DNA of 64,000 bases from a virus (IMGVR_UViG_3300030330_006692:32556-96555), one strand, 5' to 3'; positions 17,085 to 62,162 are shown, counted from the stretch's first letter. The notes: generated by a model from the sequence alone, not told the origin. A program made the numbers and translations.

Positions 17085-17085
17085 A

Positions 17086-17745: not shown

Positions 17746-17759
17746 CAAAGGAGACAAAA

Positions 17760-17930: not shown

Positions 17931-18150
17931 TCAAAACGAAGTCACATTTAAGCTCTCTAATCAGGCATTGGGATCGATTATGATGGCACTTCAAGAATCT
18001 CTTTTGAATGAGATTGACATCGTTCCAATTTTAAGAGGATTCGAACTGACTAATAGCACCGAAGGGTTGGTAGTTAAAAATCCTCCCACTGTTCGTGTTT
18101 CTAATGAACAAAACATCAGTGAGCAAGATTTAGTTAATATGGTGCGGTAG
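17923..18150 (+). CDS. hypothetical protein (75 aa)
   Basis: ORF translationally coupled to its neighbours. Confidence 0.8.
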   Translation: MDNQNEVTFKLSNQALGSIMMALQESLLNEIDIVPILRGFELTNSTEGLVVKNPPTVRVSNEQNISEQDLVNMVR

Positions 18151-18416
18151 TGCCAAAATATTATTATCACTGCCACAATTGTCATGGTGATTTCTACGTT
18201 TATCACATGATGTCTGAGCAACAGGAACTTTGTACTATTTGCGATGCGCCTGACATTAGTAAATTACTAACAAAACCGCTACATGTTATAAAAAAAAGTA
18301 ATTCAAAAAAGACTGGTGATATAACAAAAAAGTATATCGATGATAATAAAAAAATTCTAGAAGATATGAAGAAAAAAGCAACATCCGCAGCGCACAGTGA
18401 AAAAAATGAAAGTTAA
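18150..18416 (+). CDS. FmdB-family zinc-ribbon protein
   Basis: MPKYYYHCHNC...CTIC pattern. Confidence 0.8.
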   Translation: MPKYYYHCHNCHGDFYVYHMMSEQQELCTICDAPDISKLLTKPLHVIKKSNSKKTGDITKKYIDDNKKILEDMKKKATSAAHSEKNES

Positions 18417-30446: not shown

Positions 30447-32243
30447 ATGGCAAATGAACAGAAAAAAATATTACCGATTGATTATACTAGTAGAGATTTT
30501 GAATCAATCCGGAGCGATTTATTAGAAATTGCTGAAAGACTTTACCCTGACTCTTTTCAAGACTTCAGTGAAGCGTCTTTTGGCTCTCTTGTAATAGATG
30601 CTGTTTCTTATATCGGTGATCAACTCTCGTTTTATTTGGACTATAACGTAAATGAATCTTTTTTAGACACAGCATATCAATTTAATAATATTTTACGTCA
30701 TGGAAGAGTCCTCGGTTACAAATATACCGGCCGTCCCAGTACCTACGGAAAAGCCGCATTGTTTGTTTTGGTACCAGCGTCTCAAACCGGCTTGGGCCCA
30801 GATAATAAATATATACCGGAGCTTAAACGCGGAGCACAATTCACAAGCACAACAGGGCTTAATTTTTCTTTGTCAGAAAACATAGATTTTGCAGATCCAA
30901 AAAATCCCGTTGTGGTAGCTAAAGTCGATAACGTAACTGGTGCGCCAACACATTACGCCATAAAAGCGTATGGCACGGTAGTTTCAGGCATTTTAACCAC
31001 AGAAAGAGTCGCTGTGGGTTCATATGAGAAATTTAAAAAGGTAACATTAAGAACCCCTAATGTAGCAGATATAATTTCTGTACATGATACAGATGGAAAC
31101 GAATATTTTGAAGTAGATTATTTGGCTCAAGATATGGTTTTTAAAGAGGTTTCTAATAAAAACTTTAAAAATGATAATGTGCCCTCTATCTTAAAGCCAT
31201 TTTTGGTGGCTAGAAAATTTGTTGCGTTAAGAAACGGGAGTACAACAGTTTTACAATTTGGGAGCGGTAAATTTGGTGAAAGTGATGTAGTTGCAAACCC
31301 GCAAACAGTAGCAATGAATAGCTGGGGAAAGACATATACAACATCACTCACTTTTGATCCCACCAAATTATCAACTAATCAGAGTTTAGGGATTGTTCCA
31401 CAAAATACAACGCTAATTGTTACAGTGAGAACCACTAACCCAACAAATTCCAACTTAGCAGCAGGACAATTAAATACGGTAGCATTCTCAGAACTTCAAT
31501 TTTCTGATAGAACCGTATTAACAAATGACAAAATAATCTCCGTTCAAAATTCCATAGAAGTATCAAACGAAGAACCAATTACTGGAGATGTAACAAATCC
31601 AAATTCTGCAGAAATTAAACAAAGAATTTTCGATACCTTTCCGACACAAAATAGAGCAGTAACTCAAGCAGATTATGAAAATGTAACATATAGAATGCCG
31701 GCAAAATTTGGCTCCGTGAAACGCTGCTCAGCTCAAAGAGATCCCGATTCTCAAAAAAGAAACTTAAATATGTACGTTTTGTCCGAAGATTCTTTTGGAA
31801 AATTGATTAAAACAAATTCAACTATTAAGAATAATTTAAAAAAATGGTTAAATGAATATAAAATGATCAATGACACTATTGATATTTTGGATCCATTTAT
31901 TATAAATGTTGGAATTAATTTTTCTATAAAAACAATCAATGGCGCAAATAAATTTGATACGTTAAATCAGTGTGTCGCTAAGCTAAGCAATTTTTACAGG
32001 AATGGGTTTTTTATTGGAGAGCAGCTTAGTGTTGGGGACATATACCAAGAATTAAAAAATGTTAGTGGAGTTTTGGATGTGATCAATGTTCACATTGTTG
32101 GAAAAACAGGCGCCAATTATTCAGCATCTAGTATCGATATCAATAAAAATCTTTCTCCAGACGGTGGTAGTCTTATTTGTCCAAAAAACGCAATTTTTGA
32201 AATTAAATTTCCGTCACAAGATATACAAGGAAAAGTTAAGTAA
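30447..32243 (+). CDS. baseplate wedge protein, T4 gp6/baseplate J-like
   Basis: Motifs IDYTSRDFESIR, FQDFSEASFG, LSFYLDY..NESFLDTA, LQFGSG and QNRAVTQADYE. Confidence 0.92.
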   Translation: MANEQKKILPIDYTSRDFESIRSDLLEIAERLYPDSFQDFSEASFGSLVIDAVSYIGDQLSFYLDYNVNESFLDTAYQFNNILRHGRVLGYKYTGRPSTYGKAALFVLVPASQTGLGPDNKYIPELKRGAQFTSTTGLNFSLSENIDFADPKNPVVVAKVDNVTGAPTHYAIKAYGTVVSGILTTERVAVGSYEKFKKVTLRTPNVADIISVHDTDGNEYFEVDYLAQDMVFKEVSNKNFKNDNVPSILKPFLVARKFVALRNGSTTVLQFGSGKFGESDVVANPQTVAMNSWGKTYTTSLTFDPTKLSTNQSLGIVPQNTTLIVTVRTTNPTNSNLAAGQLNTVAFSELQFSDRTVLTNDKIISVQNSIEVSNEEPITGDVTNPNSAEIKQRIFDTFPTQNRAVTQADYENVTYRMPAKFGSVKRCSAQRDPDSQKRNLNMYVLSEDSFGKLIKTNSTIKNNLKKWLNEYKMINDTIDILDPFIINVGINFSIKTINGANKFDTLNQCVAKLSNFYRNGFFIGEQLSVGDIYQELKNVSGVLDVINVHIVGKTGANYSASSIDINKNLSPDGGSLICPKNAIFEIKFPSQDIQGKVK

Positions 32244-33787
32244 TGTCAATTAAAAGATATGTAGCCGACTTAGACAATACTATAGTTAATGCATTTCAGC
32301 CAAACATGAGCACCCGCGGCACAGGCTCAAATAGCGGACAAGCAGATATAGTTGAAGTTTATTCTGTTTTTGCTAGACAGCAGAACAGCAGCTCCGCGAC
32401 AACTGGATCTCAAGAATTATCTCGTGTTTTGATGCGATTCCCAGTTAGTAACATATCAAACGATCGATCAAACAGTAAGATTCCGGCTAGTGGTAGTGTG
32501 AGTTTTTACTTGCGATTATACGATGCAAAGACATCGAAAACCGTTCCAAAAAACTACTCACTTGTGGTTCAGGCTATATCTAGATCATGGGAAGAGGGTG
32601 ATGGATTAGATTTAGAAAACTATCAAGATTTAACAAGAGGCGGCTCTGGATCAAATTGGGTTATGGCTAGCAAAAATCAAGCTTGGAGTAGTGTGGGTGG
32701 TGATTATCATTCTGCGCCAACGTTTAAGCAATACTTTAGTGGTGGTTTGGGTGATTTAGAGGTTGATATAACTCCATTAGTAGAGCAGTGGATAGCCGAA
32801 ACTAAGGATAATTACGGCTTAGGCATCCGCCTCACCGCGAGCAATGAAGCTTACTTCTCCAGTTCTGCTGGGACAGATTCGGGCAGTGTTATTCAAAATC
32901 CGGATGGCGCCAAAACTTCCTACTACACTAAAAGATTTTTTGCACGCGGCACTCAGTATTATTTTAAACGTCCCGTTATTGAAGCTAGATGGGATTCAGT
33001 AACTAAAGACGACAGAGGATCCTTTTTCTTCAGCAGTTCTTTGGCTAGCTCAACGGAAAATTTAAATAAACTCTATCTTTATAATTATGTGAGAGGTAGA
33101 TTAAGAAACATTCCAGCAATTGGAACCGGCTCGATATATGTTAGCTTGTATTCCGGCTCCTCCGACAATACAGAACCAAGTGGATCCAAGCTGGTTCTGT
33201 ACGACGGTAAAACTGCACTAACAGGAGGCTATTCGGAAACTGGAATTTATACGTGTTCTGTTGCTGTGACAAAATCAACATCCGTGACATTAAATACGCT
33301 TTATGATGTGTGGCATGATAATTCTGGTAATGAATTTTTTACCGGCTCAATAAAGCCATACTTGTTGCGCGCCTCGAACCAGAGCAGAGAGCCTACATAT
33401 TACCTTTCAATTACAAACTTACAGAATTCATATATGAGAGATCAGAATGCACGCCTTAATTTATATGTGCGAGAAAAAAATTGGAGCCCAACAATCTACA
33501 CTAAAGCAGTGGATAGTGCTCCAAACTTAACTATTTATAGTGCCTCTTTCCGAGTCATTAGGACTATCGATGGATTAGAGGCTATATCTTTTTATACAGG
33601 CTCAAGTGATAAAAACGCCACAGGATTGTCGTATGATGTCTCTGGTAATTATTTCGATTTAGACATGAGCCTGCTACAGCCAGGATATGAGTACGCACTT
33701 AAATTTGCATTTTATGATGATGAACTAAAAAGCTGGCAAGAGCAGAATGAACAATTTAAGTTTCGAGTAGAAGATTATGAGCATTAA
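32243..33787 (+). CDS. structural protein with a DNRLRE/CBM96-like beta-sandwich domain
   Basis: Motifs DNTI, SRVLMRF, YLRLY, SWEEG, DLEVDITPLVEQWI..NYGLGIRL and RPVIEARW. Confidence 0.7.
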   Translation: MSIKRYVADLDNTIVNAFQPNMSTRGTGSNSGQADIVEVYSVFARQQNSSSATTGSQELSRVLMRFPVSNISNDRSNSKIPASGSVSFYLRLYDAKTSKTVPKNYSLVVQAISRSWEEGDGLDLENYQDLTRGGSGSNWVMASKNQAWSSVGGDYHSAPTFKQYFSGGLGDLEVDITPLVEQWIAETKDNYGLGIRLTASNEAYFSSSAGTDSGSVIQNPDGAKTSYYTKRFFARGTQYYFKRPVIEARWDSVTKDDRGSFFFSSSLASSTENLNKLYLYNYVRGRLRNIPAIGTGSIYVSLYSGSSDNTEPSGSKLVLYDGKTALTGGYSETGIYTCSVAVTKSTSVTLNTLYDVWHDNSGNEFFTGSIKPYLLRASNQSREPTYYLSITNLQNSYMRDQNARLNLYVREKNWSPTIYTKAVDSAPNLTIYSASFRVIRTIDGLEAISFYTGSSDKNATGLSYDVSGNYFDLDMSLLQPGYEYALKFAFYDDELKSWQEQNEQFKFRVEDYEH

Positions 33788-36700
33788 AAAATTATTTGAA
33801 GACGCAAATAAAACAAACACTTATTTAGCCCAAACAAACGAAAAGGATGCTTTCGAGCCAATCGAGTCTGAAAGAAATCTGAAGCAAAAAAAGATTTCCC
33901 AAGAACGGTATGTTCCTCAGATAGATTATTCGAATCCAGAAAACTTTGTTAAATACGGATCGGCAAGATTGTATTATGAGTCTGCATTCAATAGAATTTT
34001 GGATTATTATCCATATGATGGCTCTGAAGCTGAAATAACCAAGTTTCACAACGACAATCTTGATATAGAAGAGTACATTTTAGAAAAAAAATATCCTAAA
34101 AGCAATGGATATATTATTCTAGCAAAAGACGGCTACAGCGTTAGCTCTAAGCAAGATGACTATGGGATCCCTACAACTAACGAATATATTGACTTAAAAG
34201 GCGGCCCGGGAACAGGCTCTGCTAATTCTACATTACTTAAAGACTTGCTGCCAAATCCTTATACGGACAGCCGCAAAGAATCAAACTTATACAGCACTGA
34301 CATCTATTCAAATTCAGGGTTACCATCCGATTATGGAAAGGGCAGTAGAGAGTCTAATTTACGTGCTAATTTTGACGATGGTGTTACTGTTGAGTTTTGG
34401 ATGAAAACCGGCTCTATTGAAAGGCGTGGTGGCAAAACAGGTAGGCAAGTAATTTTCGATAGTTGGAATAATGAATCGGAGCATTCTAACAAATACTCTA
34501 GGCTCACAATCGAACTTACAGGGACTACAACTTCTGACGGCGGGGTAAATAAACGTCCATTTATAGTTACAATTCAGTCTGGTGCCAATCAACCTCGCTC
34601 TGTAGACACAATGCAATTGCTTGGTGCTGCTTCACTTCAAGAGAATATGGGAGATTGGAACCATTATGCGCTCAGACTCTACAATACTGGCTCTAAAAAC
34701 AAAACTCTTAAAACTGAACTCTATGTTAACGGTAGGCGCTCTGATAGCTCTTCTTTTGCTTGTTATAGCTTGACTTCTAGCTTGGGATTGGAGCTAACGC
34801 AACGTAACCTTACTAAGCCCGATTGGTTTTTAAATAATACTAAATATAGATACTCATCAGCAGATACCCTCCAAGGCTGGTGGAGATTAAACAGCAGCAC
34901 CATTACAACGGATTCACCCGAGCCCGACTCTAGTGGGAACAATCGTACTGGCTCAATATCTGCAGCTGCAGAAGCCCCCGCAACCTCCGATCTTACTCCG
35001 AGTAGATATATACAAAATGGCTCAAACACCTTTGGTGCCGATGCTGCAGATGGGATTAATATCGGCTCGAATCCTACTTGGGACGCAATTATAGGTAATG
35101 CCGCCGGCTCAACTAGAAAAATGACACTTGCCGCTTGGGTATATAAAACTGGTGACGGTGGCGGAAGCCCGGGATTCGGGCGAATAATGGATTTTGGTTA
35201 TGGTGATATCTCGTTATTCTCGGATCCGCTCGATCGAGTGAGATTTAGCGTCAAATGGGACGCTTCCTCGGTTGTTTGGATTACAGGTGGGAACGAACTA
35301 CCCTTCAACGAGTGGCATCATGTTGCAGTGACTTACGATGCAAACGATCCTAACGCTGATCCTAAGATATATGTAGATGGAGTATTAGAATCTTCCTCGT
35401 TGTTCTCTGGCACAAAGGGTGGCACTTACAGCGGTATTGCCGGCGGCACCTCAAGATGTATGATTGGAAATCGATACTCCGACTCCACCGGCGCTGATCG
35501 AAATTGGGAAGGAAACCTAGCTGACGTAGCGGTTTGGAATTCTATATTATCAGAGGATGAAATTAAATCACTCTATGCAGCTGGATCTTACTATCAGCCA
35601 TTTGATGGCATAACGGAATTAAATTCTAAAAACATGGTGGCAAGAATCGGCGCCTTGGTTACTTCTCCAAATAGCTCTTCCGCTCCTGCAGGCGCAGGTA
35701 GATTAACGGGCTCTCTTGATGAGTTTAGATATTGGAAAGCTGCCAGAAATGAAAAGCAAATTGGGCAATATTGGTTCGATCAAGTTAGGGGCGGCGCAAA
35801 TTCAGACATTTCTAATGCTGATCTAGGTGTTTATTATAAATTTAACGAAGGAATTACAAATAATTCATCAATTGATAGTGTGGTTTTAGATTATGCTGGC
35901 CGAGCTACAAATGGTACGTGGACAGGATATTCATCCGGCGCAAGGAACACGGGATCTGCAATTCTATCTGCTAGCACTAATGCACGCAGCGCACTTAATA
36001 ACGGAAACAACTGGCCAACTAAAGAGTTCAAAGATCCAGTAGTCCGTGCGAGTCATCCGGACGTCGTTAGCCTTAAAAGTGAATTAATTACATCTGGTAC
36101 ATCATATGATTATAATAACAATGCATCGCTATTTTCTTTAATGCCCGGCTGGGTACAGGACGAAGTAGCAGATTCAGAAAATTCTGATTTATATTATATT
36201 ACTCATATTGGCGCAACATACCTAGACAAATTGCACCTTCAAATATCCCAACTGCCTAATTTGAGACATTTAAACTATGTTAGTTCGTCCAATAAACCGC
36301 TACCCTTCTCCAAACACTTGCCCCAGTCATTAGGGTTGTATTCTCCAGAGTTGTTTATTGATGCAGATATTTTGGAAAATTTTGCTGATAGAGGCTCAGA
36401 GCAGATTTTTCAAGATAAATTGCAAGAAACAAAAAATCAAATTTATCAAAATTTATACAATAATATGGCGCACATTTTCAAGAGCAAAGGGACAGAAAGA
36501 TCTCTTCGAAGCTTGTTGAGATGCTTAAATATAGATAATGGCTTATATCGAATAAATGTTAATTCAAATAACGAGAAATACACTTTAACCAATAATTTGA
36601 AACAAACTTTAATGAAGAAAAAGTTTTTGAATTTCAATTCGCCGGAAAATGTTGGAGGTGTGATTTATCAGAAAGAAGAATCGTCATCGCCAACCAACCT

Positions 36701-39700
36701 TTACAGGGGTTACATCAAAACAAATAGCACTGTTTTGGATGATCAAGTTGTAAAAAAATCACTTTATCACGGCTTTACGTGCGAATCTAATATAGTTTTC
36801 CCTTCATATGTGAGTTCGCCAAACATACCCTCCTTTGAAAGAGACTCTTCTTACAATAGAATAAGCTTGTTCGGTATAGAGCAAGTTAATAAAGATGTAA
36901 CAGATTCTCTTGATGGTACAATCACACACTACATTGAAGATAGAAACGCTACCTTTAGAGTGTACGCGGTTAGAGATGGAGTTGGCTCCAAGAATGCCTA
37001 CTTCCACTTGACTTCTTCTCGCACTGATGGGAATGGAATAAGTCTTTCAAGTTCTGTTTTCTTGGACGTATATGACAATGAACCGTGGAATTTGTCAATT
37101 AGAGTGAAACCTATTCGGAAATACCGCGCCGGCGTGATACCTGCGGGCACCGCAACAGTGCGCTATAAAGTTGTATTTTCTGGATATAATCCAAAAACAC
37201 CTGATGATATCGATAGCTTCGTGGTATCTCAAAGTGTTAGTCAAACAATTGGTGAGCAATATATAACTGGTTCTCGCCGAGTGTTTGTTGGAGCCGATCG
37301 AAATGATTTAACGGGAACTTTGAATTATAAGAGTGATGTGTTGGTATCTTCAGTTGCATACTGGTCTAAATACATGCTTGATGATGATCTAAAACAGCAT
37401 GCGTTAGATTTTGAAAACATTGGTGTTTCTGATAGAGATAGAACATTGTCACCTTTTGATAGCGGCTCTGTTGACATTACAAATAAAAATGCCTTAGTTT
37501 TAAATTGGAATTTTGAAAATGTAACAACGTCGGATGCAACCGGAAGCTTCTACACGGTAGACTACTCCTCGGGATCGTCGGATTTGGCGATGATGGCATC
37601 ACCCGGATATGTAAAGAATAAGGGATGGAATGGATATTTATCAGGCTTTTTGTATAGCGGATACGGTAAGGGGTTTGCGAATTCCTCAACAGAGGTAGTT
37701 AAAGAAAGAGAAATAAACACATACAAATTCATTAATCCAGAACATGTAGTATCATCAAATATGGTACAGACGTTTTCAGATGAAGATCTATTGTTTTCAA
37801 ATCTTAGAAAAGATGAAATCGTTCCTAATTACGTATTTTCGATTGAAAAAAGTATCTACAATGCAGTCAGCGAACAAATGCTTGATTTTTTTGCCGGCGC
37901 AATAGACTTTCATAATTTAATTGGACACCCAGTTCACACTTACCGCCACCGATATAAAGAAATTGATAAATTAAGACAGCTGTTCTTTGAACGTGTCCAA
38001 GAAGTTAAACAAACCGAAAAGTTTTTAAATTATTATAAATGGTTTGATAAAGCCATATCAACTATCTTAAGTCAATTTATACCAGCATCAGCAGAATTTG
38101 TTGATAATATGTTAAATGTGGTAGAAAGTCATGTTTTAGAAAGGAATAAGTATCAAAATAGGCTCAACATCATAGATTCAAATACATTCTGGAGAGACTT
38201 TTCTTCCGGCATCTCATCGATGCGTTTTGCTGGGCAAACTATTCCATGGGAAGGCGGCGCCAGCGCCACATCCTTGACTTCGCCACCTGAGTCACCAAGA
38301 AATACAAATATTGGTATAAAGTATTGGCAAACAAGAGCAGAAAGATCGGGAGATGATATAACATCTGGAGTCGCTGCTATAGATGCTCAGCGAGAAATAT
38401 ATCGTAAGGTTATATGGTCTAAACCTCACGGTTCTTCTTCGCTAGATAAATTGTTTACTGTAAATGGGACTCAGTACAATAAAACTGAATTTTTAAGAAA
38501 CAATTCTAGCATGACTCCAGATATTCGAGCCTATGTTGATAAGGCTAGTGACGCAATATACAAGTGGCAAATACCAGAAAAAGATAAAACAGAAATACAC
38601 GGCGGGGTTAATTTTAGTAGAAATAAAAGTCTTGAATACGCGTACGCGTCGGTATTACCAGGAGGGCCAGTTAGTCTTTCTGGATCTGGATTTGTTCCTT
38701 TAAATGTTTTAGTTGGACTCGTTAGAGATTCAACTGAATTAACAAAGTACACAAATGTAGAATGGGACTCGGATTTTATTAGGACTCGCGAACAGGTATT
38801 TAAAGTTCAAAATGCCAGACATTGGGAAAACGGAATTGGCTATAAAAATACTAAATCAACTTTTGCCTTTCCATTCAACGTTTTAAGTTCTAGTGTAGAA
38901 GTACGAACCGGTTACAATAAAGATGTTATCGAGCGTGTTGGAAGAAATTTAACAATAACAAACTTACACAACGATGCATATGGCAGCATGATGGAAATAC
39001 CGATGCAAGGGCCTTTCACAGAAGAGGTTGTCGGTGGGCATCAATCAAGACACATATCATTGAATGAAGGTACAGATACACAAAGAAATCGCGCCGAAGC
39101 ATGGAGAATTCTTCTTGGAACGTGTACGGTTGTTCCTTCTGGTGCTATTGGATTAGTCGGTCCAGATTATCCACCGCCTACCTTTAATCCAAAACCCGGG
39201 CGCCCTTTCAACAGAATATATCCTTACCCGATGCACGAAAAGGCATATCTATACAGAGACTTTATCGCAAAGCGTCCAGTTAACATAAAAAACATAAACA
39301 CAAAGAATTCAACAAATACAAAAACACTCCCTGGAAACTTTGCTCACAATTATGAAGTAATCAGTTCATTTGGGGCTTTCAATAATCCTCGTGCATTTGT
39401 AGAAAAACAACCAACATTGCCGGCACAGGTATCATTGACAAGTGACACTACAAATGTTAGAACTATTCTAAATAATCACCGCCGCGAACAAAACCATTTC
39501 GAAACAATTGGAGAATACAGCACATCATACTTGACAGGAACCACAAACAAGTCTATTGTGGTGACAAGATTTGCAGCCCCGGGCGGTATAGAAGTTGAGA
39601 CAAGAGGATATCAAGATTTTAAATCCTCCGAATATAGTCCCTATAACTCTTTAGCATATCGTAACTTAACCGTTAAAAAGCCCTCACAAGGACCTTCCGG

Positions 39701-46208: not shown

Positions 46209-46223
46209 TTAAATTTTATAAAA

Positions 46224-51820: not shown

Positions 51821-51883
51821 AGTTCTAAGAACAAAGACTACAAATTTGTAAATGATATATTTATAAAATAGAGGAAATTAGAA

Positions 51884-52522
51884 ATGTCGGTTTTTAACCC
51901 AAGGCTCTTGAGTAAAAAAGGTAATTTAAAAAATAGGATAATTACATCCTCTCCACACGATATATTAATCAGTACTGTGCAGGATGTTTTGATAACAAAA
52001 GGCTACTTGTTTGATCACAATCCATGCCCTCAAACCCTTATCCCAATGTCCGCAGGTATTTTGGATACCTTTGAGATTGTTTTATCTAATGAGAAAAAAA
52101 CACACTCGTTAATACAAAAACAGACTTCTAATTTTAAAATCGATAATCCAAATATTCTAGATCCTCAGATTTCCTTAGTCACGCAAATTGAAAAAACCAC
52201 AAAAGAGCTAGGAATGACGTTTGATATAGGCAGTACTTTATTTGAGCAAGATTACAAACTTACAACTAATGAAGAAATACTTTATAAACAAAATAAATCA
52301 ACGCTAAAAAATAGTGCTAGCGGATTATCATTTATAGCGTTATTTTTTTGTGGTGAGCAGCTTGGCGCTCTTACAAGAGACAATAAATATATGATAGATA
52401 AAGAAAAATACACTAAGATTTTAGTGCAAGGCACTGGCAGAAGTGCAAAAAACGAAAAATCAATGATTATACGCCCAAGCGCTCTAGAACAACATATTTG
52501 TAGAGGTGTCGGAAGTATATGA
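51884..52522 (+). CDS. hypothetical protein (212 aa)
   Basis: ORF with SD GAGG and an upstream TATTTA motif. Confidence 0.7.
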   Translation: MSVFNPRLLSKKGNLKNRIITSSPHDILISTVQDVLITKGYLFDHNPCPQTLIPMSAGILDTFEIVLSNEKKTHSLIQKQTSNFKIDNPNILDPQISLVTQIEKTTKELGMTFDIGSTLFEQDYKLTTNEEILYKQNKSTLKNSASGLSFIALFFCGEQLGALTRDNKYMIDKEKYTKILVQGTGRSAKNEKSMIIRPSALEQHICRGVGSI

Positions 52523-54333
52523 GATCTCACGATGGAAGCCACGAATGGTGGAACTGGATGCTTCCAGGGCCATATAACCAATTTATGATCACCAGTTACC
52601 CCGACGACACAGATGGATACGCATATAAGGGCTACTCTTTACAAGATGCTGTTGAGACAATAACTGGTGATAATTTTGACAATTTTTCCGAAATTGTAGG
52701 CGAAGGACTTTCTGATCTCTCCTTTACCGACGGCTCCTACGCCGGCGGCTATGGTCGTCAAGGCATGACATCCACCATTTATGAAAGTGGCGAATTTCAC
52801 GATTCAGAGACTCCAAAAGAGGGCTATGAAGTTATCGGCAGATTAGCATTGACAGCAACTGAAAATAACGATTTACATGCATTTTTTCCAAACGCGTCGA
52901 AAGATTGGACAGAAACAAATGGAGAAGCCTTTATAGTTAAAATGTTAACTGATCGAATACCATACCAAGTACCTCTTGATAATTATAATGGATACCTAAG
53001 TTCTGCTTGGTGGTTCGCTTGGAGTCAAAAAATGAGATTTTATTCGGTGACTTCCGCGACAACAAAATCTGACATGCAGGCAGCCTCAGCCGGGTTCGAA
53101 GATATAAACTACTCATTAATTAATCCATGCCCTGATTGTCAGACAATCGGTAGAGCAATTAATGAATGGGAAAGAATGTCATCGTTTTATTATGGCTATG
53201 GCGGCGCTGGTGTTTATGACTACTTCGCAGCCGAAGCAGGGTTTCTGACTAATGTTTCGCAAGGTATTCAAGGTATTGATCAAGCCCGGGCAGACGGATC
53301 CGCCTCGGCTGGTTCTGGATTTGTCGGAACCGCAACCTACCAAGACACCGTGGATAGTTATATGGATTCTGAGTCTATTTTAAGAACCACGCAAGATGTA
53401 CTACTCGCCTCCGATGCGCTAGCGCCAATAGCCGCGGCATACGGGGTTGTTGATGCATCTGGGATAGATACCCTAAGATGGGAGTCGGAAATCAACACTA
53501 ATACATATGGCTCTGCATACTGGACTAGCCTTAGATCACAGCGTCAGTTCTTCGGAATCTTAACAAAGTTTACAGGAGTTTCTGACTCGGATAATGTAAT
53601 GCCAGATTTTTTTAATATTAGCTTTTTCCAAACTCATGCGCGCCAACGCGTGCTCGGCTACAGCGGAGATGTTCACAGAGGTGGATACGAAGGCAGAAGC
53701 TCCGAGACAAGAGAGACTTCGACATCAGATGCGGCAATTACCTCAACGCTCCATGGCAATCATATTGATGCGATTACAGATAATACTGATCCAAAGCGCT
53801 CAACTGTTCCTTATACTCCATATATAAAATCATATGACTACTCCAAAAGCGCTGAAGTTACCGCCGAGCTTTTTGGAACAACGGATGTAACAAATTGGGG
53901 AGAAGGATCAATCACAACAGAGGAAACATACGGTATGTATCATCTACATACATCCACTGGTGTCATCGTAGATCTCATAAATAGATTTGGTGCCACCAAT
54001 AGCAGCTACAAGGGCTCTACTACCGGAGTCAGCGCCGACGCGTCTGTCATGACAATGAGAGATAGAATGTCCTACTTAGGTGCTATAGACAAGTCAAAAG
54101 GATTTCTTGCAAACAAAGCATGGCTTTTACAAATATCTTTGGATGCATGGACAGGAAATATGGAAAATAAAATAAACCAGCAGCTTTCTCCAACTCTAGA
54201 TATTAAAATGATGAACCCAGTAGGAGACATATACGGCGGCTATACGGCAACAGAAGCTTCTTCAATGCCAGCTGATTCTTCAATGATGGGTGATTCTGGA
54301 GATTCTTCTGGCGGCTCTTATGGTTCGTATTAA
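52519..54333 (+). CDS. hypothetical acidic Ser/Gly/Thr-rich protein (604 aa)
   Basis: Long ORF with an ATGA overlap and a low-complexity C-terminal tail. Confidence 0.75.
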   Translation: MRSHDGSHEWWNWMLPGPYNQFMITSYPDDTDGYAYKGYSLQDAVETITGDNFDNFSEIVGEGLSDLSFTDGSYAGGYGRQGMTSTIYESGEFHDSETPKEGYEVIGRLALTATENNDLHAFFPNASKDWTETNGEAFIVKMLTDRIPYQVPLDNYNGYLSSAWWFAWSQKMRFYSVTSATTKSDMQAASAGFEDINYSLINPCPDCQTIGRAINEWERMSSFYYGYGGAGVYDYFAAEAGFLTNVSQGIQGIDQARADGSASAGSGFVGTATYQDTVDSYMDSESILRTTQDVLLASDALAPIAAAYGVVDASGIDTLRWESEINTNTYGSAYWTSLRSQRQFFGILTKFTGVSDSDNVMPDFFNISFFQTHARQRVLGYSGDVHRGGYEGRSSETRETSTSDAAITSTLHGNHIDAITDNTDPKRSTVPYTPYIKSYDYSKSAEVTAELFGTTDVTNWGEGSITTEETYGMYHLHTSTGVIVDLINRFGATNSSYKGSTTGVSADASVMTMRDRMSYLGAIDKSKGFLANKAWLLQISLDAWTGNMENKINQQLSPTLDIKMMNPVGDIYGGYTATEASSMPADSSMMGDSGDSSGGSYGSY

Positions 54334-54354
54334 TAAATTAATTGAGAATATAAA

Positions 54355-57300
54355 ATGGCGACTAAATTAGAAAGAAAAAAAATAACAATAGTAAGTAAAG
54401 AACTGTTGAACACCGGCCCTGATCGTCTAAAAGTGGCGCTGGGAGATGAGTTCTATATTGCAGAAGAGGCTGAACCAGCTTACAGACTTCCAGATTCCAA
54501 TTCTGCAGTTTATAATCAGTATTATGAAAGAACAAAGCCTACCTCTGATGCTTATGTGCAAGAGCATATATATGGAGATTTTCTCGGAGAATATGACAAT
54601 AATTTGCCTCGAGCAATGGTTGATTCCACTATTATGCCATTCGGTGTACCGCCACTGATAGGAGAATGGGAGGCTAATTTTTATAATGTAGATATGATTA
54701 GTCAGAATGCATACGTTCCTAACTTCAAAGTGCCTATAAGGTTTTTTGCATCTTGGGATAATTCCAAAGGAGATCTTTATTGGAACAAATATTGGATGGG
54801 AGGAGTTTGGGATGGAAAAGAATACGCGCCCCTCATCGACGAAAATAAGGTGCTTTATATAATTAAATCCGATTTTTATATGCCGTATTCAGATGAAATG
54901 ATGAATCATTTTGATGCAGAATATTATGATGGAATTCCGTCATTGAAGTATTCAATTAATGCTTTTTATGAACATTACGATAGAGATATTCAAAACAGAA
55001 TCGATTGGGAAAAAGACATAGAAGAAAAGCTACTGCCAAGCTATCTATTTGTTCGCGATCGCTACCAAGGAAATTTTAGTGAAACATATTTTGATTCTTC
55101 AGATACTGGAATAACTGTTGCCAACGAATCCGGCGGATCACTGTGGAGAAACTATACTTTTCAAGAAATAAATTTAGCGATATGGCACTTTGGCAGAAGA
55201 AAAATGGTAGGCGATATCGACGATGCACCAGCTAGAGCCGCAGCAAACAGAAAAAATGACTACTTTAATACAAACTGGCCTAAAACATGGGATTTGGAAG
55301 ATGTGGCTGCAGCAAGAGAGCATGCTCGCCGTCATCTAGAAAATATATTTATTGATCAATTTTATTATGAGTATTATGGTGAGAGTGACGGTGATCTTGC
55401 GACAGGCGTGACATCCGATGATCACAGCGACAAGGAGACCGCCGATGAACGACATAAGAACATTATAGCGAGCAGCAAACCTTATGGAATAAATATTGGG
55501 TTTGATCGACATAAAACTAATGAACCCGCAGACGGCTTCGAGCAACATAATGTTCATGCACAAAGCGAAGGTAAAGCAAATTACAACACAGGTAAAAATT
55601 TAATAAGAGATGTTATCGAAGAAAGTAAATTTTCGACTAAATTTTTAGAAGCACTTAAAGATCTTGACGATGGACAATTTCCTAATTTTCCGCAAAAAAC
55701 TAAAGAATATTCAACACAATTATGTGCCGCCAACAAACACGGACTAACCGATGTGAAATCGATATCTTCCGATGGCGCCTCGTGGTCCGACGTGAGTTTC
55801 CTTCCGGAAGAAAAGACTATCGAAAATCGTAAGTTTAAATGTTTTGAATTTTTGGATTTGCTTGGGTACTTGTACAATAATCAAGAAATTGCAATTAATG
55901 ATAACTTTACAAACTTAGGGCCGGCTTCTATTTCTCATCAAACAACAGTAGCAGATAGTACTTTGTATCGATATGTAGATCAGACAAAATTACTATTAAC
56001 TATGGATAAGACGATGGATTACTTAGGGCAATATTATAGTCCATATTTTGAGGCGTTAAGACAAAAGCAATATTATCTACATCCTGATCCTGATCGAGTC
56101 GAAGATCCTCTGCTGATTAGTCTGACTGATCGAAAAACCTATCTTGAACAACTCGCCAAAAATTTTTTCATGATTCATACTAATACTCCTTTGCACGTTT
56201 TAGCATATCGAATTGATAAATATGAAACAACAGACGCCGGCGATCCAGTGGGAGATCCGATACAGAAATTTTGGATTTTTAATTCGTCAAACGCCCCTAA
56301 CAGAATTAATATAAAAGATACCCAAGTAAAATTTGGAAAACAATATTGCTATAAAGTTTTTGCATACACTTGCGTTCTTACCAGTAAATACAAATATGAT
56401 AACTTAAGATTAACAAAACAAATTGCAAGATATGATAGATTTGGTGAAGACGAGCGCGCGACTCTCCGCGGAGACAGAGAAAACGCCCTAGGCATTGAGA
56501 CATATTGCGTTCAATTTTATAATCCTTATAGCGAAGAGTTGGCTGATCAGACATTTAGCAGCACGCTAGGAGAGTACGGTGGCGATACTGACAGTATCAC
56601 ATACCAACAAACAGTCTTATCAGAAGAAAATCTTTTTGCGACATTAGGGCAAGAGATTATTCGATATCCCCAGGCGGCAGATATATATTTTAATTTTCAA
56701 CCGTGTTTGGAAATTTTAGAAATCCCAATGATAGAAAAAACTATTGGAGTTTTTGATAATCCATCTTATGCATTATCTCCTCAGCCATTTCATTTTATGG
56801 ATACTACAAATAGATTAGCATTTTCTTTACGCGGCGAACCGTTTAAGCCTTATTTTTATCCTCCAATTATTAATCAAGAAGATAAAGTACTTCAAAAAAA
56901 ATATATGCAATCGCGAAGCTTGTATAATTCTGATTTCGTATCTGAGTATTCTCGCTCACCAGCAAGGTACATAGAAATGTATAGGATATCGAAAACTCCA
57001 GAATCGTTCGCCGATTTTGCAAATAATATGGTGAGTCGAATTGATTTAAGAATCCCCGATAGCAAATATAATGTTAAAGATTATGTAGCAACAGATCGAG
57101 TTTTAGCCAATAAAAAATATTACTACGTGTTCAGGACTGTAAATGAAGCCGGTATGCCCTCCTGGCCATCTCCAATTATAGAGTCAACCTTGGTGGATGA
57201 TGGCGGATATATCTATTCTATTTTTGATACATATGATACATCTAATTTCTTAAACGATCCGTTTAAAGAGCCTTCTGTTCAAATCAAAAAAATGTTGCAA

Positions 57301-57600
57301 CTGGAGCCAAATATTAAACAGATGCAATTTGACATAACCGGAGTAGACTTTAAACAGCCCGCCCAAACACAATTAGACAACATTCAGCTGGGCACCACTG
57401 ATGGTGAAAGATTGTGGGATAAGAAATTTAAAATTCGTTTAACATCAAAAAAGACAGGTAAAAAAATAGATATCAATGTTACGTACGAGATTAACAAGTC
57501 TGTTAGTACGGAAGAACACATAGAAATATCATATCTTGATCCGGACTCTGATTTGCCGTACCCACTGTGGCTGACTTCTACTGGGTATAGCTCGAGCTAG
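54355..57600 (+). CDS. hypothetical structural protein (1081 aa), possibly with fibronectin-III-like C-terminal segments
   Basis: DTQVKFGKQYCYKVFA and DRVLANKKYYYVFRTVNEAG resemble FN3 F/G-strand patterns. Confidence 0.7.
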   Translation: MATKLERKKITIVSKELLNTGPDRLKVALGDEFYIAEEAEPAYRLPDSNSAVYNQYYERTKPTSDAYVQEHIYGDFLGEYDNNLPRAMVDSTIMPFGVPPLIGEWEANFYNVDMISQNAYVPNFKVPIRFFASWDNSKGDLYWNKYWMGGVWDGKEYAPLIDENKVLYIIKSDFYMPYSDEMMNHFDAEYYDGIPSLKYSINAFYEHYDRDIQNRIDWEKDIEEKLLPSYLFVRDRYQGNFSETYFDSSDTGITVANESGGSLWRNYTFQEINLAIWHFGRRKMVGDIDDAPARAAANRKNDYFNTNWPKTWDLEDVAAAREHARRHLENIFIDQFYYEYYGESDGDLATGVTSDDHSDKETADERHKNIIASSKPYGINIGFDRHKTNEPADGFEQHNVHAQSEGKANYNTGKNLIRDVIEESKFSTKFLEALKDLDDGQFPNFPQKTKEYSTQLCAANKHGLTDVKSISSDGASWSDVSFLPEEKTIENRKFKCFEFLDLLGYLYNNQEIAINDNFTNLGPASISHQTTVADSTLYRYVDQTKLLLTMDKTMDYLGQYYSPYFEALRQKQYYLHPDPDRVEDPLLISLTDRKTYLEQLAKNFFMIHTNTPLHVLAYRIDKYETTDAGDPVGDPIQKFWIFNSSNAPNRINIKDTQVKFGKQYCYKVFAYTCVLTSKYKYDNLRLTKQIARYDRFGEDERATLRGDRENALGIETYCVQFYNPYSEELADQTFSSTLGEYGGDTDSITYQQTVLSEENLFATLGQEIIRYPQAADIYFNFQPCLEILEIPMIEKTIGVFDNPSYALSPQPFHFMDTTNRLAFSLRGEPFKPYFYPPIINQEDKVLQKKYMQSRSLYNSDFVSEYSRSPARYIEMYRISKTPESFADFANNMVSRIDLRIPDSKYNVKDYVATDRVLANKKYYYVFRTVNEAGMPSWPSPIIESTLVDDGGYIYSIFDTYDTSNFLNDPFKEPSVQIKKMLQLEPNIKQMQFDITGVDFKQPAQTQLDNIQLGTTDGERLWDKKFKIRLTSKKTGKKIDINVTYEINKSVSTEEHIEISYLDPDSDLPYPLWLTSTGYSSS

Positions 57601-57636
57601 ACAACAAAAAATAATATTAGAGAAACTATTTAAAAC

Positions 57637-58752
57637 ATGGCATACATAAAAAGAAGCGATTCAATTGTAGTAACTGCAACTTTAACTGAAAAAGGTAAAA
57701 GATTATTGTCGCGTGGCAAATTTAAAGTATCAAAATTTGCACTTGGCGACGATGAGATTGATTACGATCTTTTTGATCCAGACCGTTACTCCACCGATGC
57801 TTACAACCCAGCACTCGTAAACTCACTAATGTTAGAGGCTTTTAAAAAAGATAATGTCAATATTTTTTATGGACTGGACTCATATGAATCAGGGATATTG
57901 TATTTATCGAATGAAGAGATCAGCGCCATGGGGGGAGCAAGCTTGCATGCAAGCATTGAGTATCTACCAATTTTAATAAAAAATCCTAATACCAAGCTTT
58001 CACCTACTCTTAGGGATTCGGTATATTACTTATCTGCAAATAGTGAAACTACTGAAAAACTAGACTCAATTGGTAATTTTAGATTTTTGACTACAGATAA
58101 ATTAGAAAATGTAAAAATTATAATTGAATCTGGAATTGATAATCCAGATGGTAGTCAAGATGCAACACGCCCAACAAAATTAAATCAAGAAAAAATGATA
58201 TTCCAAAGATTTTTGTTGGATATGGATTATTATGTTTACGCGGATAATAGGTTTATTAATAAAATATGCGGAATAAAACCAAATTCTCAATATAAAAATT
58301 ATGCTTATGATATGAAGAGGTTCGACATAAATTTCATAACATCGGAACCCGCCCCACCAATTTCTTTATCGTCAGAATTTGAAAACTATGCCACGTATAT
58401 AATTAAAGGCATTATAAATAAAATGTTTTCTCATAATAATTACGATCACTTTGAAAGTTCCTGGGACGCCATTGATGCAGCCCAAGCGATTCAATCGGGC
58501 GGCTCTCAACTTAACGGCCCAAGAGGTGGAATTGTTGCATTAAATCCAATTATAAGTGAAGAATTAAAAGAAAACTCATTGGGAATTAGAGACTTTAGAT
58601 ACTCGGATTATGGCTTTGTCGACAAAATACTTTTTAGTGAATTGCCCACAAGTAAGTTCGATTATATTGATACCACTATTTATGTTATAGGGTTGTCTTC
58701 AAATGCTAGAATTCAAATTCCTATACGAATAGTAAGATACGCAGGTACATAA
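57637..58752 (+). CDS. structural protein, tail-collar/fibre-attachment N-half-like paralog
   Basis: Motif LTEKGKRLLSRGKFKVSKFALGDDEIDY, with a C-terminal FDYIDTTI...QIPIRI shared with 58828. Confidence 0.75.
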   Translation: MAYIKRSDSIVVTATLTEKGKRLLSRGKFKVSKFALGDDEIDYDLFDPDRYSTDAYNPALVNSLMLEAFKKDNVNIFYGLDSYESGILYLSNEEISAMGGASLHASIEYLPILIKNPNTKLSPTLRDSVYYLSANSETTEKLDSIGNFRFLTTDKLENVKIIIESGIDNPDGSQDATRPTKLNQEKMIFQRFLLDMDYYVYADNRFINKICGIKPNSQYKNYAYDMKRFDINFITSEPAPPISLSSEFENYATYIIKGIINKMFSHNNYDHFESSWDAIDAAQAIQSGGSQLNGPRGGIVALNPIISEELKENSLGIRDFRYSDYGFVDKILFSELPTSKFDYIDTTIYVIGLSSNARIQIPIRIVRYAGT

Positions 58753-58827
58753 ATTTTAAAATAAATCAATAATATAGTAAACTCTTTGTATGAAATTTAC
58801 TATTTATTTAGTTAAAGAGGAAAATAA

Positions 58828-59820
58828 ATGGCTTTTTTAGATAATTCCGGAGACATCATACTCGACACAGTACTTACCGAAATAGGTAGGAAAAGAATGG
58901 CTACAGGAAATTTTAAGATTACTAAGTTTGCGCTTGGTGATGATGAAATCGACTATAGCCTATACAATAAAAATCACTCGTCAGGATCGGCGTATTATGA
59001 CTTAGAAATTTTACAAACACCTGTATTTCAATCTAGTACCGGCGTGAATGCAAACATAAATTATGGACTACTTTCATATCGTAACGCGAATTTATTATAT
59101 CTACCAAATATAAAAAGAAATAATTTAATTACTAATTCGGTAGCAATGCGCGATAATGTTTTTTACTTAGCTGTCGATGATGGACAGGTAACCTATGACG
59201 CACTAATGACAGCATTCGGCGGCGTGCAAGGCGGTGGCTCTCGACAATTACTGAAATCAGGAGACATGAATGGGCCGGTTATCTGTATTGAAACAGGAAT
59301 AGACAATGCGGACATCCTAGCGACACCAGAAAATAGACAAACATTTATTGTTGGGCAGGGCTTAGTGGATACCGGCTTTCAGATATCACTAGATAGAAGA
59401 TTTTTTACTGCAGTTCTCGGCCCAAGTGGGCAGGCGACATTCAATAATCAAGGTAATTTCGGAGCCGCAAATATTCGAACTACGCTAATATCGAATACGA
59501 TAACTAATGTCAATAACCAACTTGGAGAAAATTTCGGAATATCTCAGATAAGAGCACTGCAGAATAATGTGACATATAGCGCTGGGAACAATACATCAGA
59601 TACGAGCATATCGGTAATTGCAGGCCCGCGTTCGGCGGTTACATTTATTAATTTTACTGCTTTGGATATCTCCACTTCTGATTTTTCCAAACATGGGAAA
59701 ACAGGACAAACCATTTCCGGAGCAGCGGGAACATATAAATACATTGATACAATGGTTACGATTCTTGGATCAACTGGAACACAAGATCAATTACCAATCA
59801 GAATTATACAAAAAGAATAA
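58828..59820 (+). CDS. structural protein, tail-collar/fibre-attachment N-half-like paralog
   Basis: Motif LTEIGRKRMATGNFKITKFALGDDEIDY, with a C-terminal YKYIDTMV...QLPIRI. Confidence 0.75.
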   Translation: MAFLDNSGDIILDTVLTEIGRKRMATGNFKITKFALGDDEIDYSLYNKNHSSGSAYYDLEILQTPVFQSSTGVNANINYGLLSYRNANLLYLPNIKRNNLITNSVAMRDNVFYLAVDDGQVTYDALMTAFGGVQGGGSRQLLKSGDMNGPVICIETGIDNADILATPENRQTFIVGQGLVDTGFQISLDRRFFTAVLGPSGQATFNNQGNFGAANIRTTLISNTITNVNNQLGENFGISQIRALQNNVTYSAGNNTSDTSISVIAGPRSAVTFINFTALDISTSDFSKHGKTGQTISGAAGTYKYIDTMVTILGSTGTQDQLPIRIIQKE

Positions 59821-59833
59821 CGGAGTTAAATAA

Positions 59834-60880: not shown

Positions 60881-60881
60881 G

Positions 60882-62162
60882 ATGTCTTACCGTAAGTTCG
60901 GTAAAAATGATGTTTTAATAAATACGATGACAACCAATCCTCGTAGTAATTTTTACATCTATAGTGGCACCATTTTTTATAACAATCGCACGTCTCACCC
61001 GGGAGAAATAAGAACTGGACTAAACAATGTATACATGACAGAGCCGGGGTATGTCAATCTTTATGAATATAATATTGATCGTGTTGCTGGAACAAGTGAT
61101 TTAATTTATCCATTTTTAGTGAAAGATGGAAGCCGAGCAATGTTTTTTATATCTTCTTCGGGCCCAATGTCTATGGAAGAGTATGCAGCCGATGGCTATG
61201 GAGATGTTTTCACAGGAAGTTACCCTCAGTTTGCTAGTATAAAAAGAAGATATATCATAAATCCATCGCAATCCTGCGGTGAAAGAAGAAGAGATCATTG
61301 CGATCATGTGATGGCATATTGGTCTATTAGGAATGTTTTAAATCACTATACAACCATTAGCCCTCATTACGCTGTAAAACACGGTACACCCCCTTCATAC
61401 ACCGATGGATGGGATAAGGACAATCAAAATTTAAATCTTATTTATATACCATCCATATTTTACGGAAATAGAATAAAACCGGGCACTGTATGTTTGAGGT
61501 GGTATTTAACTGGTTCTGTGATTGGAGAGCTAAAAGACAGTAAAGAAAATGGCGAATTAATACAAACTGTGGGGAGTACGTGGGATAATTCTACTAGTAC
61601 ATATAGTAGCGATAACATAGGCTCTGTTGCTGGTGTTGTTTTATATAACGAAGGATTTATTATATTAACCGGCTCATGGCCACTTTCTGGAAGAACTATT
61701 AAATTACACAACAAAGGCAACTATTTTCCTCGATGGAAATATTGGGGTTTTGGTGCTCGCGATGGAGAAGAATGGGATCTTTCCGCGGGTAAAAGCGCCA
61801 TCAGCGCATCTTTCAGTTTGGACTTTGAGGGAGAAAACACCACAGAAGTTATGACTATGTACGCTCATGCACCCCGCGGCGAAGTTAATTATTCAAATAA
61901 TCCGACGTTTTTAGAATATAATCAAAGAATAACATCATTTACATCTTCCAATATCTATGAAGAAAACCCAAACAGAAGAATTAAAAACACCGTTTCATCA
62001 AGTTATTTGGGACACAATGAGTCTTTTAAAAGGCAGGTATACATAAATAAGGTGGGCATATATGATGAGCAGAAAAATCTAATTGGTGTTGCAACATTGG
62101 CAGATCCTGTTCTCAAAGAAGAAGATCAGGATTTAACTTTTAAAATTAAACTGGACTTATAG
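60882..62162 (+). CDS. structural protein, paralog of 59834
   Basis: Motifs IKPGTV, GVVLYNEGF, VNYSNNPT and YINKVGIYD...LIGVATLADP...FKIKLDL. Confidence 0.75.
   Translation: MSYRKFGKNDVLINTMTTNPRSNFYIYSGTIFYNNRTSHPGEIRTGLNNVYMTEPGYVNLYEYNIDRVAGTSDLIYPFLVKDGSRAMFFISSSGPMSMEEYAADGYGDVFTGSYPQFASIKRRYIINPSQSCGERRRDHCDHVMAYWSIRNVLNHYTTISPHYAVKHGTPPSYTDGWDKDNQNLNLIYIPSIFYGNRIKPGTVCLRWYLTGSVIGELKDSKENGELIQTVGSTWDNSTSTYSSDNIGSVAGVVLYNEGFIILTGSWPLSGRTIKLHNKGNYFPRWKYWGFGARDGEEWDLSAGKSAISASFSLDFEGENTTEVMTMYAHAPRGEVNYSNNPTFLEYNQRITSFTSSNIYEENPNRRIKNTVSSSYLGHNESFKRQVYINKVGIYDEQKNLIGVATLADPVLKEEDQDLTFKIKLDL

Follow-up and report, generated by a model that had tools for sequence, protein, structure and literature searches.

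Dispersed [ST][GAS]S tripeptides in virion proteins of aquatic myoviruses: a candidate sequon for O-glycosylation by a pair of GT4 enzymes

General O-glycosylation in Bacteroidetes takes place at the sequon D-[ST]-[AILVMT]. To our knowledge, glycosylation of virions by phage-encoded enzymes has been chemically documented so far only in actinobacteriophages, at C-terminal tails. In mycobacteriophages the glycans are located at the C-termini of capsid and tail-tube subunits (Freeman et al. 2023, as summarised in PMC12619734; cited also in PMC10877033). Serine-rich-repeat adhesins of Gram-positive bacteria are primed by GtfA/GtfB, a pair of GT-B glycosyltransferases (GTs) in which GtfB is a non-catalytic chaperone and DUF1975 mediates the GtfA–GtfB and acceptor contacts (PMC6973325). 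Here we analyse a 64,000-nucleotide (nt) stretch of viral DNA (IMGVR_UViG_3300030330_006692:32556-96555), further referred to as the window. The ordered tripeptide [ST][GAS]S is concentrated in four proteins of its tail module, and two adjacent genes encode glycosyltransferases of the GT4 type, GT4#1 and GT4#2. In our reading, to which we assign a probability of about 45%, the tripeptide is most likely a sequon for virion O-glycosylation by this GT4 pair. No description of the motif or of virion glycosylation in these phages was found in the literature searched.

Motif excess in the proteins of the window

The proteins compared are encoded by the following genes (lengths in amino acids, aa).

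30447..32243, + strand: gp6-like baseplate wedge protein, 598 aa, not enriched, used as the phylogenetic marker
32243..33787, + strand: 514-aa protein, directly 3' of the gp6-like gene, 15 motif copies, five of them TGS
33777..46208, + strand: 4143-aa protein with LamG (Laminin_G_3) domains, 61 dispersed motif copies
46224..59820, + strand: contrast set, seven tail-module proteins of 374, 1497, 212, 604, 1081, 371 and 330 aa
59834..60880, + strand: 348-aa protein, penultimate gene of the tail module, 10 motif copies, five of them TGS
60882..62162, + strand: 426-aa protein, paralogue of the 348-aa protein, seven motif copies

The expected numbers of copies were obtained by composition-preserving shuffling of whole proteins. 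They equal 3.9 ± 1.9 for the 514-aa protein (z 5.9), 20.3 for the 4143-aa protein (z 8.9), 2.1 for the 348-aa protein (z 5.5) and 1.4 for the 426-aa protein (z 4.8), so that the overall excess in the carrier proteins is three- to fivefold. The preliminary description of this stretch had counted 15, 10 and 7 copies by hand in the three shorter carriers and dozens in the LamG protein. The counts are exact, the dozens amount to 61, and the excess, for which that description had suggested comparison with such shuffles, stands at z 4.8–8.9. The motif-poor neighbours named there also hold: the gp6-like protein has one copy (1.6 expected), the protein encoded at 58828 has one, and that encoded at 57637 has none. 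Each protein of the contrast set is at or below expectation, except for the 212-aa protein (2 versus 0.5). Taken together, the non-enriched tail-module proteins contain 10 copies versus 19.9 expected (P = 0.011), and the non-structural proteins of the window, 8 versus 7.4.

When residues are shuffled inside local windows of 10–80 residues the excess persists, with at most one of 500 shuffles reaching the observed count for any protein; hence it is not produced by local patches rich in serine, threonine and glycine. In an unbiased scan of all 8000 tripeptides in the four proteins TGS ranks first (30 copies versus 3.5 expected, p = 2.5e-18), followed by SSS (25 versus 7.4) and SGS (15 versus 5.3), and the reversed tripeptide SGT is not enriched (4 versus 3.5). 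The other 8672 aa of proteins encoded from 20548 onward, mostly of the tail module, contain no TGS at all (3.2 expected). Three further properties had been ascribed to the motif earlier, and each was recovered. The codons are varied, the 30 TGS copies being encoded by 18 distinct 9-mers, which rules out a signal at the DNA level and places it at the level of protein; the copies are dispersed along the 4143-aa protein; and the preceding residue is hydrophobic in 47–49% of sites versus 31% in the background.

Position specificity was estimated on 13.3 thousand amino acids (kaa) of enriched proteins pooled from the window and one complete relative. Among tripeptides of the form xGS, only T (62 observed, 8.8 expected) and S (51 and 11.9) are enriched at the first position; in TGx, only S is enriched at the third (TGT, 10 and 6.6); and in SxS, only G, A and S are enriched at the second. 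At position −1, L, I, V, M and H are preferred; from −4 to +1 acidic residues are scarce (at −1, 9 versus 23.4 expected in 228 sites), and at +2 they are commoner. Given that each position is sharp, [ST][GAS]S as first defined is close to the optimal definition of the motif.

The 348-aa and 426-aa proteins are paralogous in their C-terminal halves (29% identity) and are the sole related pair among the carriers (59834/60882); paralogy or shared repeats were therefore rejected as the source of the motif. Carriers in the window and its relatives are of unrelated kinds and include LamG domains, sheaths, a capsid insertion and the 348-aa protein, whose fold is unmatched. The 4143-aa protein matches PF13385 (Laminin_G_3 / concanavalin A-like lectin) above the gathering score in three stretches (E = 1.7e-56, 191 bits), and no Pfam or PHROG family match was found for the 514-aa protein.

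For the 514-aa protein 30 homologues were compared, the most distant at 42% identity, and each has 11–18 copies (z 4.6–8.3). The 348-aa family has more than 8000 close relatives and 2352 representative clusters, and in its members with at least 60% identity several sites retain the motif in 98–100% of sequences. Over the family as a whole, 6.8 sites per sequence are distributed over 91 alignment columns, no column being common to 90% of sequences. Sites situated more than four columns from any query site are still 2.0-fold (348-aa family) and 2.8-fold (514-aa family) more frequent than in shuffles. The number of copies in homologues of the 348-aa protein ranges from 0 to 13. It falls to 0–2 in six homologues that are full-length and mostly about 40% identical, their equivalent turn positions being occupied by D, N, K or E. 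Given this turnover of sites and these motif-poor full-length homologues, the alignments indicate that the motif count rather than the site position is conserved and that the fold can dispense with the motif. A family-wide locus search recovered only homologues with at least four copies, and a related-locus search with the motif-free ones (P0259, P0224) found no close relatives. A subset of close homologues (P0034, P0043, P0046 and others) is 475–491 aa long and aligns in two pieces, which suggests a domain of about 130 residues inserted in the middle of the protein.

AlphaFold2 (AF2) models the 348-aa protein with confidence (pLDDT 89, pTM 0.81). All ten sites map to the last residue of a strand, a loop or a helix N-terminus of the model and none to the inside of a strand or helix; nine of them are in well-predicted blocks. 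The preliminary description had expected the motifs in surface loops of predicted structures. Foldseek found nothing at E ≤ 0.001 among solved structures, and the best VIA-align hit, a phi812 baseplate chain (Z 4.2), was too weak to be used as a fold match. The model of the 514-aa protein is of low confidence (pLDDT 65) and was left out of the fold search.

The motif and the GT4 pair in related phages

The candidate enzymes and the adjacent sugar genes are located in the left part of the window.

4924..6207, + strand: GT4#1, GT-B glycosyltransferase with EGFGLxxxE, candidate writer (Pfam PF00534, PF13692, PF20706)
6204..7448, + strand: GT4#2, candidate writer (listed open reading frame, ORF, from 6183)
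7445..9457, + strand: GT4#3, 670 aa, accessory, with an N-terminal GT4 domain carrying EX7E and a C-terminal half of no family
9470..19236, + strand: accessory sugar island with two NeuB, two SDR, TIM-barrel, cupin, CMP-cytidylyltransferase, PhyH-like, two FkbM methyltransferase and sulfotransferase genes

The likely start of GT4#2 is the ATG at 6204, overlapping the GT4#1 stop by 4 nt, as its homologues begin at residue 8 of the listed ORF. EGFGLxxxE is present in all three GT4s, and at least 97% of the homologues aligned (120 of GT4#1 and 115 of GT4#2) keep both glutamates of EX7E. GT4#1 and GT4#2 have more than 7000 close relatives each, and their matches among solved structures are generic GT4 enzymes. 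GT4#1 is present in all five complete relatives (54–61% identity). Counterparts of GT4#3 occur in some relatives only, as ORFs of 689, 660 and 679 aa. NeuB was found in two of five related contigs, all five of which keep the motif and the GT4 genes; the nonulosonic-acid island is hence an accessory module contributing at most accessory decoration, and the earlier proposal of the island as the writer does not hold in general.

Motif carriers were examined in the proteome of G008, a complete relative of 203 kb. Ten of its 155 ORFs hold 216 copies versus 71 expected, and the other 145 hold 96 versus 88. The split of tail proteins into enriched and non-enriched ones matches that of the window, orthologue by orthologue; the orthologue of the 4143-aa LamG protein (3902 aa) has 68 copies versus 14.9. 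Other carriers are two sheath paralogues, a neck adaptor, a 645-aa protein and a 1451-aa serine/glycine/threonine repeat protein. The major capsid protein is a weaker case (5 versus 2.0, z 2.2), and the terminase, the portal, gp6 and a protein of hub or tape-measure size are not enriched. The five capsid sites are at residues 170–275 of 585, outside the stretches best matched by hidden Markov models (HMMs; 31–102 and 315–562), and all 12 sites of the two sheaths precede residue 660, outside the conserved C-terminal core. The sheath genes are adjacent (L127:14132-17161 and L127:17289-20261); their products are about 1000 aa each, and since HMMs match only the C-terminal 350 residues, some 650 residues apiece make up extra domains. 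In 78 environmental sheath homologues the density of sites is about threefold higher in the variable part.

The gene of the 1451-aa protein (L127:2699-7054; G008 122699-127054) is just upstream of the major capsid gene. Rich in Ser (18%), Gly (17%) and Thr (16%), the protein repeats with a period of about 33 residues and contains 81 motif copies (26 TGS); it is similar to serine-rich-repeat proteins and possibly serves as a fibre or decoration of the head. In another relative, G012, TGS occurs 94 times in 11.8 kaa versus 6 times in 34.9 kaa. The preliminary description had named the outer baseplate and fibre proteins as substrates; across whole proteomes the motif is indeed carried by virion proteins only, but in relatives the range is wider and takes in the sheath, the capsid insertion, the neck adaptor and the giant repeat protein.

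The nearest deposited relatives of the window are Microcystis phage Mel-JY01, Flavobacterium phage immuto and the 484-kb uncultured phage LR756508; Rhodothermus phage RM378 is more distant. Both GT4#1 and GT4#2 are present in Mel-JY01, where seven tail-region proteins are enriched and the sheath has 11 copies versus 3.2, and in immuto, where tail proteins, including a 1053-aa spike (60 versus 20), are enriched and the sheath has 10 versus 3.8. The enrichment of these two sheaths was predicted before inspection and then found. The five complete marine genomes G006–G010 carry GT4#1 and GT4#2 together with a homologue of the 348-aa family having 5–11 copies in each (2.2–2.7 expected); of these, the whole proteome was scanned for G008. 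In the complete genomes G021–G024, from a second lineage, GT4#2 is accompanied by an adjacent PF00534 GT4 gene, whose orthology to GT4#1 is presumed only, and the sheaths have z 3.5–4.2. Thus each of the 11 complete genomes that are motif-positive and were tested (G006–G010, G021–G024, Mel-JY01 and immuto) carries the GT4 pair.

The enrichment is not a generic property of myovirus tails, as shown by T4 and Atu_ph07. The 26 structural proteins of T4 have no excess (maximum z 2.5, two TGS in all), and none was found in the 40 kb around the gp6-like gene of Atu_ph07. The search of the phage collection found no GT4#2 in either phage and no GT4#1 in Atu_ph07; we know of no GT4#1 in T4, for which no search aimed at it was made. 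In the same collection, homologues of GT4#1 are present in all seven records with the 348-aa family, in addition to weaker partial hits in nine unrelated phages, and full-length homologues of GT4#2, in Mel-JY01 and immuto only.

LR756508 has GT4#1 and lacks GT4#2. Its proteome shows a 1.24-fold excess (TGS 38 versus 30), and its two sheaths have one and zero copies. In the gp6 tree it groups with Mel-JY01 and immuto (99/99) as the sister of Mel-JY01 (87/85). Since it is nested among motif-positive phages, the best reading of LR756508 is that both GT4#2 and the motif have been lost in its lineage. The association expected earlier between the enrichment and the 4924/6204 pair in related phages is thus observed, both in the 11 positive genomes and in this almost motif-free one.

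The strongest excess was found in G012 (176 kb, 92% complete), with 494 copies versus 200 expected and TGS 100 versus 27. No GT4 was found on this contig, whose one marginal GT-B-like ORF is unrelated to GT4#2. However, in four complete close relatives the pair is located 12–14 kb from tandem Mom genes, and the Mom genes of G012 are 1 kb from the contig end. The gene order of the relatives therefore places the pair in the missing 8%, and G012 was rejected as a counterexample. The contig ends (L234:13675-15226 and L226:126-1022) carry two tandem genes of the Mom family (DNA adenine modification) with a ParB-like gene on one side and RimK-like ATP-grasp and metallophosphoesterase genes on the other. 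G013, a 70%-complete environmental contig of the sheath group resembling LR756508, encodes homologues of both GT4#1 and GT4#2 (L183, 42.7–45.3 kb; 35–37% identity), so the pair is spread across the wider clade.

In phyletic profiling of the 155 G008 ORFs, only PhoH and a small baseplate protein, besides GT4#2, are present in all positives and absent from LR756508. GT4#2 is the best phyletic correlate of the motif among the genes examined, and this unbiased profiling revealed no other candidate writer.

Several features of the window complete its description. All its large ORFs are on the + strand. The following genes precede the ones listed above or open the tail module.

Left part of the window: Hsp20, PIN-PhoH and PD-(D/E)XK nuclease genes
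From 30066: gp25-like gene, the start of the tail module, followed by the gp6-like gene and those of the 514-aa and 4143-aa proteins

Nine more tail-module proteins follow the LamG protein, ending at 62162, and a RuvC-like resolvase and a primase are encoded downstream. Between the PhoH and nuclease genes a 231-aa protein (3414-4109) has sub-threshold metallopeptidase matches (anthrax lethal factor-type domain, M90). In the contrast set, the protein encoded at 57637 (371 aa) is paralogous over its full length to that encoded at 58828 (330 aa; 25% identity, E = 3e-27), and neither is enriched in the motif. The 58828 protein has its first 50 or so residues in common with the protein encoded at 46224 (46224-47348; E = 0.001), perhaps a shared baseplate-attachment segment.

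Proposed explanation and its rivals

The observations are in keeping with a selected tag on virion proteins that is independent of their fold and would depend on the GT4 pair for its maintenance. O-glycosylation would be the simplest mechanism. We propose that Phi-[ST]-[GAS]-S serves as a recognition tag on the outward-facing parts of these proteins. The adjacent retaining-type GT4s (encoded at 4924 and 6204) would act late in infection and in the cytoplasm, drawing on nucleotide sugars as donors and attaching the sugar to a hydroxyl of the tag. The acceptor is probably its first Ser/Thr, because position 1 tolerates either residue and position 3 is strictly Ser. It is equally likely that GT4#1 and GT4#2 act one after the other, in two successive transfers, and that they form a heterodimer. 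Extension or decoration of the glycan would fall to GT4#3 and to the nonulosonic-acid, methyl and sulfate island, in this phage and those closest to it. We infer from the sequence the modification itself, its kind, the acceptor residue and a protective or adhesive role of the coat.

As a still more tentative extension, a widespread and abundant clade of aquatic myoviruses, comprising marine T4-like phages with thousands of metagenomic relatives, Mel-JY01 and immuto, may sugar-coat their virions at the O-sequon Phi-[ST]-[GAS]-S. A two-GT4 core would write the coat and swappable islands (here for a methylated, sulfated nonulosonic acid) would diversify it, as a counterpart of the sequon-directed glycan shields of animal viruses. 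If this is true, modified sites on phage particles could for the first time be predicted from a sequence rule, and both the conservation of glycosyltransferases in these phages and their variable sugar islands would be explained. The finding would be relevant to adsorption, to resistance against proteases, defence sensors and grazers and to how viruses decay in the ocean, and would provide a compact tag–enzyme pair for glyco-engineering. As the motif-positive Mel-JY01 and immuto are in culture, the sequon idea is directly testable.

A number of observations weigh against this explanation. The correlation between the GT4 pair and the motif reflects few independent events, essentially one loss (LR756508) and the outgroups. 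Four modestly enriched ORFs remain in LR756508. RM378 has a GT4#1 homologue (24% identity) with a weak adjacent GT4#2-like hit and shows a modest 1.7-fold excess overall, with two enriched ORFs; an initial reading of RM378 as motif-negative, made from 33 kb, was overturned by the whole genome. The two adjacent ORFs (483 and 423 aa; NC_004735, 64825-67547) are the sole clearly enriched proteins of this thermophilic phage, with 8 copies versus 1.8 and 6 versus 1.2. The motif-free homologues of the 348-aa protein (P0259, P0224 and others) are on contigs of at most 20 kb, too short for the presence of the GT4 pair to be assessed. Helix N-termini, which structurally favour Ser/Thr caps, account for three or four of the ten sites in the 348-aa model. 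In the 78 sheath homologues the excess over local composition is 2.7-fold in the variable part and still 2.2-fold in the last 340 residues; the rule that the motif occurs only outside the sheath core is therefore true for G008, Mel-JY01 and immuto and is not general. Finally, GT4#1 weakly matches PF20706 (E = 1e-8), a family of GT4s from conflict systems ('GT4-conflict'), and is encoded beside a PD-(D/E)XK nuclease both in the window and in LR756508.

The most serious rival, in our opinion unlikely, is that the tripeptide is left unmodified and forms a strand-terminating turn or a helix N-cap in exposed beta-rich decoration domains, being selected for folding, solubility or weak hydrogen bonding to glycan or water, and that its link with the GT4s reflects shared ancestry. 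The placement of all sites at strand ends, loops and helix starts of the confident 348-aa model, the several sites that are 98–100% conserved among homologues with at least 60% identity, the periodic recurrence of the motif in fibrous S/T/G-rich proteins, like that of a solenoid turn, and the enrichment of the conserved sheath core over its own composition all speak for such a role. However, homologues of the same fold manage with 0–2 copies, sites turn over while their number is maintained, the homologous sheaths of LR756508, RM378 and T4 have no excess, and the counts in the non-enriched tail proteins of this virion do not exceed expectation. Moreover, turn propensities would hardly account for TGS being sevenfold over expectation when TGT and SGT are not in excess.

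Alternatively, the motif may be modified by a writer other than the GT4 pair, which we regard as rather doubtful. Some other enzyme of phage or host origin would then be the writer, for instance a kinase, an acyl- or phosphoglycosyl-transferase or a transferase encoded in the accessory islands, and the pair would glycosylate phage DNA or a polymer of the host envelope. The PF20706 match and the nuclease neighbour of GT4#1 are in line with this, as is its position in LR756508 near nuclease, thymidylate synthase and DNA methylase genes. In that phage (303.7–309.9 kb; L142:4691-10878) the order of the nuclease gene and GT4#1 is the same as in the window, with a small SLOG-like ORF between them in one of the two; thymidylate synthase and DNA methylase genes are upstream, and after GT4#1 come an ORF of 261 aa, unrelated to GT4#2 and without a family, and then genes for a CMP-sugar cytidylyltransferase and a protein resembling GT29 sialyltransferases. 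That viral GTs glycosylate DNA is established (Pyle et al. 2024, as cited in PMC12619734), and structural proteins of marine phages have been reported to be phosphorylated and acetylated (PMC12014285). On the other side, the profiling of G008 yielded no gene tracking the motif apart from PhoH and the small baseplate protein, and GT4#2 tracks it best; the hosts of the positive phages (Flavobacterium, Microcystis and a marine one) are unrelated, which speaks against a writer supplied by the host. The original claim that the motif is the recognition site of the GT4s in the window is therefore upheld in part: the motif is a directional, selected feature at the protein level that co-occurs with the pair, but the enzymes may still act on DNA.

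It is improbable that the whole nonulosonic-acid island is the writer, the nine-carbon sugar being the defining modification as in flagellin glycosylation. Two NeuB, the CMP-cytidylyltransferase, three GT4s, methyltransferases and the sulfotransferase do form one same-strand block, and in LR756508 a cytidylyltransferase and the GT29-like gene follow GT4#1. But NeuB is less widespread than the motif and the GT4 genes, LR756508 has almost no motif excess in spite of its CMP-sugar and sialyltransferase-like genes, and no transferase family of the Maf type was detected by Pfam at E ≤ 0.001. A chance or composition artefact, in which serine-rich proteins (the four carriers contain 9.6–13.6% Ser) yield many serine-containing tripeptides, has a negligible probability and is already refuted by the whole-protein and local shuffles, by the absence of SGT enrichment and by the 604-aa protein of the window, which with 11.3% Ser, 9.3% Thr and 9.9% Gly has one copy versus 4.1 expected.

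Comparison with known systems

The T4 alpha- and beta-glucosyltransferases, which glycosylate DNA, are, like the enzymes considered here, GT-B enzymes of T4-like phages, and the PF20706 match and nuclease neighbours of GT4#1 add to the likeness. A role in DNA glycosylation, which remains the main alternative role for the pair, would explain neither the protein motif nor its link with GT4#2. Unlike the Bacteroidetes sequon, in which Asp precedes the acceptor, the phage sites are depleted of acidic residues at −1.

O-glycosylation of flagellins with pseudaminic or legionaminic acid by Maf or FlmG (PMC7591256) is, like the system proposed here, cytoplasmic and directed to surface Ser/Thr of a self-assembling structure, and nonulosonic genes are present in the window. 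They are accessory here, however, and the occurrence of the genes for nonulosonic synthesis and activation does not follow that of the acceptor sites; Pfam recognised neither a Maf nor an FlmG family among the GT and island proteins of the window; and the sharp tripeptide differs from the loose, sequon-poor context of the flagellin type.

As in the mycobacteriophage system, soluble GTs encoded by the phage are proposed to decorate its own virion proteins in the cytoplasm. The host range and the clade are different, the similarity of the window GT4s to actinophage GTs is weak, at the generic GT4 level, and the glycan is chemically documented there and predicted here. Instead of C-terminal glycans, dozens of dispersed three-residue tags are present on sheath, baseplate, neck, capsid-insertion and giant proteins.

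With GtfA/GtfB the phage system would share a genetically linked GT-B pair, cytoplasmic O-glycosylation of Ser/Thr and variable extending GTs. In the strict sense GT4#1 and GT4#2 are predicted not to be a GtfA/GtfB complex, since DUF1975 was detected in neither; Pfam at E ≤ 0.001 gives only families of the Glycos_transf_1 type and PF20706. Unlike in the serine-rich-repeat adhesins, the phage tags are dispersed in folded proteins instead of long tandem repeats, and there is no SecA2/Y2 export. Acceptor units of the adhesins, such as S-A-S, nevertheless resemble [ST][GAS]S, and the phage relatives encode a 1451-aa repeat protein of similar composition. The GT4-type catalytic subunit with EX7E has its counterpart in both GT4#1 and GT4#2 (PF00534), and, unlike the non-catalytic GtfB, both phage enzymes keep EX7E and are predicted to be catalytic.

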